Shown: positions 50,207 through 50,796 of the stretch, in pieces
Layout: each line of letters starts with the position of its first letter
Position numbering within the stretch: position 1 is the first letter of the stretch
Source: a virus
Direction: 5' to 3' (one strand)
DNA: 64,000 nt
IMG/VR virus record: IMGVR_UViG_3300045988_174840
The notes under the pieces: model-generated
What the model saw: only the letters and a program-made list of their open reading frames with translations
The model's database searches: none
What the model was told of the DNA's origin: nothing
Made by a program: the position numbers and the translations under genes

Positions 50207-50314
50207 AGATTTTTCTCCTTTTTTACAAGACAGTTTATTTTAGGTTTATAAGAATTAAAAGTTCTTTCCTTGAAATTTGAAATAATATAATTGTTTGCAG
50301 TATCTGTCTTAAAA

Positions 50315-50390
50315 TCACACCAGCGAGACTTGAACCCAGCATTACGACCTTGAAAGGGTCGCGTCCTTACCATTAGACCACGGAGCCGCA
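50315..50390 (-). pseudogene. chimeric or degenerate tRNA: Glu(UUC)-type 5' body fused to a duplicated 3' end of the downstream tRNA-Glu
   Basis: The 5' acceptor GGCTCCG has no complement. The T-arm 5' strand is CTGGG, against CTCGC on the 3' side. The 3' 45 nt (TCAAGTCTCGCTGGTGTGATTTTAAGACAGATACTGCAA) are identical to those of 50715-50788. Confidence 0.4.
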
Positions 50391-50582
50391 TATTTGTACT
50401 GGGATTCAAACTCAGGTTCTCAGAATTAGTCTTGACTGCTTGACTATAAAGCCAAAAACTTATTACTCTTCTTCAAGCTCCTCATTCATAACTGATTCCC
50501 AATATTCAGCATCATCATAAAACTCTTCACACTGAGGACCTAAGTCAAAATCATCAAACATAAATATCATTTCCTTTCTTTC

Positions 50583-50625
50583 TTTTGATATATTTATTAT
50601 ATCATATATTTTTTAAAAAATCAAT
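50583..50625 (-). promoter_or_regulatory. conserved promoter copy
   Basis: ttttgatatatttattatatcatatattttttaaaaaatcaat; followed by a 33-codon acidic micro-ORF at 50462-50569. Confidence 0.5.
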
Positions 50626-50714
50626 TAAGATTTTTTAATTTACAAGACAGATTTATTAGATCTATAAGAATTTTAAGTTCTTTTAAAAATAATATTGCAG
50701 TATCTGTCTTAAAA

Positions 50715-50788
50715 TCACACCAGCGAGACTTGAACTCGCGTCTGAAGCTTGAAAGGCTTCTATCCTGTACCTACTAGACGATGGTGTG
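50715..50788 (-). tRNA. tRNA-Glu(UUC)
   Basis: CACACCA acceptor; TC-GTCT D region like E. coli tRNA-Glu; anticodon arm GAAGC-CTTTCAA-GCTTC; T arm GCGAGTTCAAGTCTCGC. Confidence 0.75.
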
Positions 50789-50796
50789 TTTCTTTT

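Follow-up and report, generated by a model that had tools for sequence, protein, structure and literature searches.

Two tRNA-Glu(UUC) genes in the tRNA array of a phage genome end in the same sequence, which also continues into the DNA that follows each of them. The locus raises the question of how two neighboring genes came to share a 3′ end and whether the second gene is still a working tRNA. The window analyzed here is the whole 64,000-nt stretch taken from the IMG/VR virus record IMGVR_UViG_3300045988_174840. A first-pass annotation, made from the letters of this sequence, had named the second gene a pseudo tRNA-Glu and a recombinant duplicate of the first. Our analysis makes it very probable that positions 50315–50387 hold a recombinant hybrid tRNA-Glu(UUC), in which the 5′ body of one gene type ("type 2") is joined to the 3′ end of another ("type 1", here Glu1), and that this hybrid is at best a weakened tRNA, probably carried along as a passenger of the neighboring genes.

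Setting of the locus in a phage tRNA array

The window has a G+C content of ~30%. ARAGORN called 32 tRNA genes in it, which all read from the minus strand within 43.3–57.4 kb and are interspersed with small ORFs and with ~17 copies of a promoter-like module. The module consists of TTGATT-17-TATAAT with conserved flanks (~60 nt in all), and its ~17 sites lie within 43260–58411, for example at 50579–50636, 50794–50851, and 52524–52581. GyrA/GyrB, DnaB, RecJ, and an endolysin-like protein, among others, are encoded upstream in the window. Exact-protein look-ups located the region on ~130–140 kb contigs from many human gut metagenomes. A close relative is absent from INPHARED, where DNA searches returned generic tRNA similarity alone and GyrA had no more than 41% identity to any record. 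Given the many matching gut metagenomes and the lack of a close cultured phage, the source is an abundant, uncultured, AT-rich human gut phage of ~136 kb with a large tRNA array. When searched with a degenerate pattern of the type-2 tRNA body, bacterial and archaeal genomes gave 0 matches, which leaves a host origin of this tRNA, or a prophage state, without support.

Table 1. Features around the two tRNA-Glu(UUC) genes, in descending order of position
Feature	Position	Strand	Basis or remark
tRNA-Glu(CUC), intact, first Glu gene of the local cluster	50856–50929	minus	ARAGORN; Rfam 51.9 bits
Promoter-like module upstream of Glu1, TTGATT-17-TATAAT with TG extension	50794–50851	minus	
Glu1, tRNA-Glu(UUC) "type 1", intact; donor of the shared 3′ end	50715–50788	minus	ARAGORN, Rfam
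41-nt exact repeat, copy 1: 21 nt of Glu1 3′ end and 20 nt of trailer, TTTTAAGACAGATACTGCAA	50695–50735	minus	
"Trailer prime", diverged copy of the trailer, ~77% identical to 50206–50294	50637–50694	minus	
Promoter-like module, second local copy, 5′ of ORF32 and the genes beyond	50579–50636	minus	
Small acidic ORF (ORF32)	50463–50570	minus	35 aa if read from the first ATG; annotated with 32 aa in metagenomes
5′ remnant (25 nt) of a second tRNA-Glu(CUC)	50429–50453	minus	intact gene L030:2702–2774, L039:6862–6934
3′ remnant (38 nt) of tRNA-Lys(CUU)	50391–50428	minus	intact gene L030:3750–3822
Hybrid tRNA-Glu(UUC), positions 1–52, "type-2" parentage	50336–50387	minus	alignment A2
GTTCAAGTC, T-loop string common to both parents; parentage-switch interval	50327–50335	minus	alignment A2
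Hybrid tRNA positions 62–73 (TCGCTGGTGTGA), Glu1 parentage	50315–50326	minus	
41-nt exact repeat, copy 2	50295–50335	minus	
Trailer running to the ORF75 ribosome-binding site	50206–50294	minus	
ORF75, conserved hypothetical protein, immediately downstream; anchor for strain comparison	49978–50205	minus	

The local features are listed in Table 1, and two contigs, L039 and L030, serve for comparison throughout. The small acidic ORF is probably a real gene because it is conserved in L039, from which it differs by 6 synonymous and 2 non-synonymous codon changes. The trailer that leads to ORF75 has 100% identity to the Glu1 trailer of strains with a "short" form of the locus (described below), and it is homologous to the trailer behind the intact type-2 gene in L039 and L030. 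Trailer prime and the 20-nt trailer start before it (50637–50714) fold as a long hairpin, AAGACAGAU...AUCUGUCUU, with a free energy of −14.5 kcal/mol and a z score of −3.0.

Around an inner hairpin, a long-range stem AAGACAG(AU)...(AU)CUGUCUU is possible in the trailers after both tRNA-Glu(UUC) genes (50637–50714 and 50206–50314). The downstream copy is much weaker than the upstream one, the stem sequence is kept in L039 and L030, and covariation was not seen in the stem. It could be a processing or stability element.

Structure of the two tRNA-Glu(UUC) genes

A repeat search identified a direct repeat of 41 nt, 100% identical at its two positions and with its copies 400 nt apart. This is the sole perfect repeat of 24 nt or more within the 17-kb tRNA array, and the window has exactly two occurrences of its 20-nt trailer part, compared with 0.02 expected by chance. 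Read on the coding (minus) strand, the 41-mer is GTTCAAGTCTCGCTGGTGTGA-TTTTAAGACAGATACTGCAA and comprises the 3′ half of the T-loop, the 3′ strand of the T stem, the 3′ strand of the acceptor stem with the discriminator base, and then 20 nt of trailer. The first-pass annotation had rightly described a shared string that spans the T-loop 3′ half, the acceptor 3′ strand, and the flank of two genes 400 nt apart. It gave the length of the identical string as roughly 45 nt; the identity is real, but the maximal exact repeat is 41 nt and the string quoted was 39 nt long. Past the 41-mer, the regions downstream of the two genes stay homologous at ~77% for roughly 70–90 nt.

Both loci are recognized as minus-strand tRNA-Glu(UUC) genes by ARAGORN (50715–50788 and 50315–50387) and by the Rfam model RF00005. 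Glu1 forms the proper cloverleaf that had been ascribed to it, with acceptor strands CACACCA and TGGTGTG, an Rfam score of 61.5 bits, and a cloverleaf minimum free energy (MFE) of −23.2 kcal/mol (z −2.4). The hybrid scores 35.2 bits, above the RF00005 gathering score of 29; of the window's ARAGORN-called tRNAs that are also placed in the tRNA family by Rfam, it has the lowest score. The hybrid folds with an MFE of −16.0 kcal/mol (z +1.0), and 172 of 200 shuffled sequences fold at least as well.

The first-pass annotation held that the acceptor strands of the hybrid cannot pair and that its T stem is broken. The first claim was overstated, as pairs form at five of the seven acceptor positions (G2·U71, C3–G70, C5–G68, C6–G67, and G7·U66). 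G1×G72 and U4×U69 are mismatched, and a full seven-pair stem that includes 1–72 is absent. The second claim does not stand: the T stem has five pairs and the same bulged U as in intact relatives, where the bulge is native, and its one change is G52–C62 to G·U. The two acceptor mismatches and the wobble pairs G7·U66 and G52·U62 all come from the Glu1-derived positions 62–73. The D arm, the anticodon arm (U33-UUC-A37 loop), and the T arm are all present in the cmscan alignment and in the cloverleaf MFE structure. CCA is not encoded in the hybrid, and the same is true of the neighboring tRNAs of the array.

Loss of the 1–72 and 4–69 pairs should impair tRNA processing or charging. The hybrid is likely to be a pseudogene, and because two acceptor-stem pairs have been lost, including 1–72, we infer that it is a weakened tRNA at best. 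Loss of function is no more than likely, since ARAGORN and Rfam accept the gene and since it keeps its D arm, its anticodon arm, and five of the seven acceptor pairs. The earlier term "pseudo tRNA-Glu" is thus a likely but uncertain label for a sequence that both tRNA finders still accept. Among strains, the hybrid has 2 SNPs, Glu1 has 1, Glu(CUC) has 0, and tRNA-Met has a few; this low diversity in the hybrid fits either constraint or neutrality. Both of them, C5>U and C25>U, leave G·U pairs and would also fit weak selection for structure.

Parentage of the hybrid and alleles among strains

A search of IMG/VR with a pattern for the 5′ body of the hybrid returned one contig, L039 (188 kb), and a pattern for the 5′ side of the T arm returned L039 alone; the exact 32-nt junction string had 0 matches in IMG/VR. 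L039 carries an intact type-2 gene at 8037–8109 (GGCTCCG...CGGAGTC, 56.3 bits) that folds as a cloverleaf with an MFE of −27.1 kcal/mol. A further intact type-2 gene, which also folds as a cloverleaf, was found in the strain survey at L030:3827–3899 (GGCCCCG...CGGGGTC, 52.5 bits), where it belongs to a "long" allele of the locus. The L039 and L030 genes are distinguished by a compensatory change, U4–A69 in one and C4–G69 in the other, which marks the type-2 tRNA-Glu(UUC) as a working gene. The hybrid had been noted to carry a different Glu-type 5′ body (GGCTCCG, D arm, and UUC anticodon arm), and this body indeed has intact relatives, in which it is matched by its own complementary 3′ strand. 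The Rfam score drops from 52–56 bits in these relatives to 35 bits in the hybrid.

The alignment of the hybrid with its presumed parents (A2) falls into three parts. Columns 1–54, corresponding to hybrid positions 1–52, contain 1 difference from L039:8037–8088 and many from Glu1. Columns 55–63 hold the 9-nt string GTTCAAGTC, which is common to all of the genes; the last base specific to type 2 precedes it, and the first base specific to Glu1 follows it. Over columns 64–95 (12 nt of tRNA and 20 nt of trailer), the hybrid is 100% identical to Glu1, and over the same 32 nt, type 2 differs from the hybrid at 7 positions, 4 in the tRNA and 3 in the trailer. After ...GCAA, the trailer of the hybrid reverts to the kind found behind type 2 in L039 and L030 and behind Glu1 in the short strains.

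Independent mutation cannot explain seven changes that coincide, and the 3′ end of the hybrid was copied from a Glu1 gene. Replacement of the acceptor 3′ strand and of the first 20 nt of the trailer by Glu1 sequence accounts for the perfect 41-nt direct repeat. The proposal of recombination between tRNA genes is thus upheld, with the switch of parentage placed inside the 9-nt string. The word "duplicate" is imprecise: the change is a replacement of the 3′ end rather than a duplication of the whole gene.

Next to the hybrid lies a second scar, a chimeric tRNA remnant of 63 nt (50391–50453) with a Glu(CUC) head and a Lys(CUU) tail. The window is collinear with L030 save for a missing segment, L030 2728–3784 (1,057 nt). 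The deletion is bounded on the left by a junction 26 nt into the second tRNA-Glu(CUC) and on the right by one 35 nt into tRNA-Lys(CUU), and Arg(UCU), Met, a 48-aa ORF, and Lys(UUU) are deleted from the window relative to L030. The Lys(CUU) tail covers the 3′ side of the anticodon loop, the T arm, and the acceptor 3′ strand, and there is a weak Rfam tRNA match at 50397–50448 (15.8 bits). A "further T-arm fragment" that had been marked at 50400–50425 is real, but it is part of this Glu(CUC)::Lys(CUU) fusion and not a stray T arm. Compared with the intact gene, the Lys(CUU) tail has six changes, all of them transitions toward A/T, and it contains an 8-nt unit, CTGAGAAC, that is present in one to three copies among strains; because of these transitions and the variable unit number, the remnant fits an unconstrained sequence.

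Both 41-mers and the same hybrid junction were found on 15 contigs of 50–140 kb, with a spacing of 399–416 nt. Two more contigs (L026 and L046) keep the hybrid alone, and there it is the sole Glu(UUC) gene left at the locus. In the short allele (L022, L025, and L029), Glu1 is joined directly to the ORF75 trailer, and the sequence equals the window minus 400 nt, that is, one 41-nt copy and the 359 nt between the copies. The long allele (L030) has the full cassette with the intact type-2 gene. In relatives, the order of the type-2 cassette is promoter, small ORF, Glu(CUC), Arg(UCU), Met, small ORF, Lys(UUU), Lys(CUU), Glu(UUC), trailer, and ORF75.

Other strains differ by deletions whose ends lie in identical 58-nt promoter modules, which removed Gln-to-Glu(CUC) in L044, Glu1 alone in L046, and Gln-to-Glu1 in L026. 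A tRNA-Met at L035:5729–5801 is also a mosaic: its body resembles the Met gene located after ORF75 in L039, its 3′ end resembles the Met gene of the window, and the switch lies in the T-loop. ARAGORN calls this gene, and it does not reach the Rfam gathering score. The promoter-repeat deletions in L026, L044, and L046, together with the T-loop switch in L035, indicate that the array generally changes by recombination at motifs that are repeated or conserved.

The flanks of L025 (short), L024 (window type), and L030 (long) differ by 0–1 SNP over ~3.7 kb, and the three short alleles sit on three distinct backbone haplotypes. Near-identical flanks and short alleles on three backbones imply that the locus changes state much faster than point mutations accumulate, or that its alleles move freely by recombination. 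No genome was found that combines the cassette of the window (ORF32 and the Glu::Lys remnant) with an unconverted Glu2 3′ end (CCGCCGGAGTCA). In distant relatives identified via a 116-aa ORF (L001–L021), the arrays are non-collinear and the tRNA-Glu trailers are unrelated.

In a different part of the array, L029:1241–1409 and L038:2386–2554 each have an 84-nt "tRNA-Thr(UGU)" call followed after 5 nt by tRNA-Leu(UAG), and tRNA-Pro is absent. This Thr-Leu junction may be another array rearrangement.

Origin and fate of the hybrid

Two routes could have led to the hybrid. Short-patch gene conversion or a template switch could have copied 32–41 nt from the Glu1 module (Glu1 with trailer prime) into the type-2 module (type 2 with trailer) within one genome, the two partners being ~77% alike. 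The resulting 41-nt repeat is a ready substrate for precise deletion, with one copy and 359 nt removable, and recombination between the new repeats would then produce the short alleles. Alternatively, an unequal crossover in the T-loop could have occurred between a cassette-bearing genome and a short-type genome during co-infection. We slightly prefer the conversion route because it would explain both sharp boundaries, of which the right-hand boundary of the Glu1 patch is at GCAA, and would yield the short allele in one step. A 7-nt indel, ATTTCAA, and the SNP distances between backbones are compatible with conversion followed by deletion and with an ancestral short allele followed by crossover alike. 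The same cassette also lost ~1.06 kb in the event that fused Glu(CUC) to Lys(CUU).

Promoter-like sites precede Glu1 and the small ORF, and no terminator-like site was found at the locus; for these reasons, the hybrid is probably co-transcribed from the 50579–50636 promoter with the small acidic ORF and ORF75. It may persist because it is placed between two retained genes, and it is probably a passenger kept by linkage to them.

Alternatively, selection could keep the hybrid because it works fully as a second tRNA-Glu(UUC) or because it is of use, though uncharged, as a tRNA mimic such as an anticodon-nuclease decoy. It passes ARAGORN and the Rfam gathering score, its anticodon arm and Glu-type D arm are untouched, and both internal SNPs keep pairing as G·U. 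It is also present in most sampled strains, including L026 and L046 with no other Glu(UUC) gene at the locus, and the array contains anti-defense-like genes (SocA/Panacea and cREC_REC). We nevertheless regard a selected function as unlikely given the G1×G72 and U4×U69 mismatches, a score ~20 bits below those of intact relatives, a fold no better than that of shuffled sequences, the plainly decaying remnant that adjoins it, and the common occurrence of short-type strains that lack the hybrid.

Formation of the hybrid has a precedent in phage T4, in which hybrid tRNA genes reportedly arose by recombination within the tRNA cluster (McClain & Foss, 1984, Cell 38:225). Both cases concern a phage tRNA cluster and join the 5′ part of one tRNA to the 3′ part of another, and loss of intervening DNA occurs here in the Glu(CUC)::Lys(CUU) remnant. 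In contrast to the T4 hybrids, which were laboratory isolates, those described here are natural alleles segregating in a gut-phage population. The Glu hybrid also differs in that the intervening DNA was kept and a short 3′ patch created a 41-nt repeat, and its function is unselected and probably reduced. The locus is a new, well-documented case of a known kind in an uncultured gut phage, with no new element or mechanism. It offers a natural example of the turnover of a phage tRNA array, with parental, intermediate, and "healed" alleles in public gut metagenomes. Short conserved T-loop segments and repeated promoter modules act as recombination points at which hybrid or truncated tRNA genes are created and then deleted. 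A tRNA call slightly above threshold in a phage array can be a recombination scar, which is a warning for annotation. The locus is also a ready system, in an uncultured gut phage that is abundant, for measurements of cassette exchange and of deletion between repeats.

A homing endonuclease with target sites in the T-loop might have made the breaks whose repair gave the hybrid, and the scars would then record cassette exchange driven by an endonuclease instead of spontaneous recombination. According to one report (PMC13096335), the homing endonuclease SegB of T6 cleaves tRNA genes internally at RAWTSGAAC, which is complementary to a T-loop motif, and segmental rearrangement of T-even tRNA regions has been tied to this enzyme (PMC13096335; Brok-Volchanskaya et al., 2008, cited therein). 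As in those regions, the array studied here is a recombination hot spot with junctions at short homologies in or next to tRNA genes, cassettes are present or absent among strains, and an endonuclease gene lies inside the array in some of them. Two independent switches of parentage in the T-loop, one in the Glu hybrid and the other in the Met hybrid of L035, would also fit such breaks, as would an HNH gene at L025:208–864, which in some strains lies in the array between tRNA-Thr and tRNA-Pro, ~2.7 kb from the locus. However, no endonuclease gene adjoins the locus in the window, the site that corresponds to the HNH gene (~53460–53679) lacks one, and a Pfam scan of 14 ORFs from the window's array gave 0 nuclease matches. 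Amplification was not seen, and GTTCAAGTC does not fit the SegB motif. T-loop crossovers are moreover expected without a nuclease because the T-loop is the longest string that any two tRNAs share. We therefore consider cutting by a SegB-like enzyme improbable as the origin of the hybrid, and any link of such an endonuclease to the Glu locus is speculative.

The HNH gene itself, also present in L027, L034, and L037, encodes 218 aa with PHROG HNH matches down to E = 1e-17 and is located between tRNA-Thr(UGU) and tRNA-Pro(UGG). This pattern resembles that of a homing-type endonuclease whose presence in the array varies among strains.

A more elaborate proposal unites selection with endonuclease activity. 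The hybrid would be retained as a tRNA-like decoy or sponge for a host defense nuclease that targets tRNA-Glu, or as a poorly chargeable regulator, with its Glu(UUC) anticodon arm intact and its acceptor stem crippled, and would be expressed with the small ORF; its T-loop junctions would stem from endonuclease-driven shuffling of anti-defense tRNA cassettes among co-infecting gut phages. We regard this combination as a distant conjecture.

The 41-nt repeats could also be read as attL/attR-like sites left by a small mobile element that integrated at the 3′ end of tRNA-Glu. The arrangement resembles such sites in that direct repeats of a tRNA 3′ end and its flank bracket extra DNA, here a 359-nt insert, and in that alleles with and without the insert ("empty" alleles) exist. 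The insert contains no integrase or recombinase; it consists of a promoter module, an acidic ORF of 32–35 aa without a family match, and tRNA remnants. The tRNA body at the right-hand repeat is, in relatives, an intact gene with its own different 3′ end, and homology of ~77% runs well beyond the 41-mer, as expected of paralogous modules and not of att cores. With no recombinase and with homology past the repeat, site-specific integration was rejected as highly improbable, and the repeat is better explained by homologous or homeologous exchange between paralogous tRNA-plus-trailer modules.

Although the short repeats of tRNA arrays can mislead assemblers, a collapsed or chimeric join of two tRNA-Glu genes, a concern raised in the first-pass annotation, is effectively excluded because the same junction and pair of 41-mers recur in at least 15 independent contigs. 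The studies, the samples, and the assemblers behind these contigs differ (their names are of the k141/k119, NODE, and scaffold kinds), and SNPs and indels particular to single strains surround the junction.

Several other features of the array and its surroundings were observed. A match to GOLLD RNA (RF02032) at 53791–54246 (minus strand) covers the full length of the model with 104 bits against a gathering score of 150 (E = 7e-27), and it sits between tRNA-Thr and tRNA-Gln. A match to the YrlA Y-RNA-like family (RF02553) at 45934–46047 (minus strand) has 40 bits and does not reach the gathering score of 69; the alignment holds for its tRNA-like parts (T arm and D arm) but fails for the long closing stem. 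A DUF2828/DUF7788 protein, for which a PDB sequence search gave 0 matches, is encoded ~2.7 kb from this match, at 41734–43215.

Four stretches that ARAGORN did not call, all on the minus strand, are tRNA-like: 43500–43556 (41.4 bits), 45849–45920 (26.8 bits), 53278–53353 (23.1 bits), and 45030–45082 (21.4 bits). The first of these exceeds the Rfam threshold, yet it is 57 nt long. The four may be further truncated or hybrid tRNA remnants.

Two small proteins of the array have recognizable domains, a SocA/Panacea antitoxin domain at 45301–45732 (minus strand, E = 1e-19) and a cREC_REC "cyclic-phosphate processing receiver" domain at 56004–56327 (minus strand, E = 8e-22). They hint at anti-defense or RNA-repair functions beside the tRNAs. 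Elsewhere in the window, also on the minus strand, two larger proteins are unusual in a phage: an 829-aa protein (30749–33238) with Major Vault Protein shoulder and repeat domains, and a 521-aa protein (35612–37177) with SPFH/flotillin domains.
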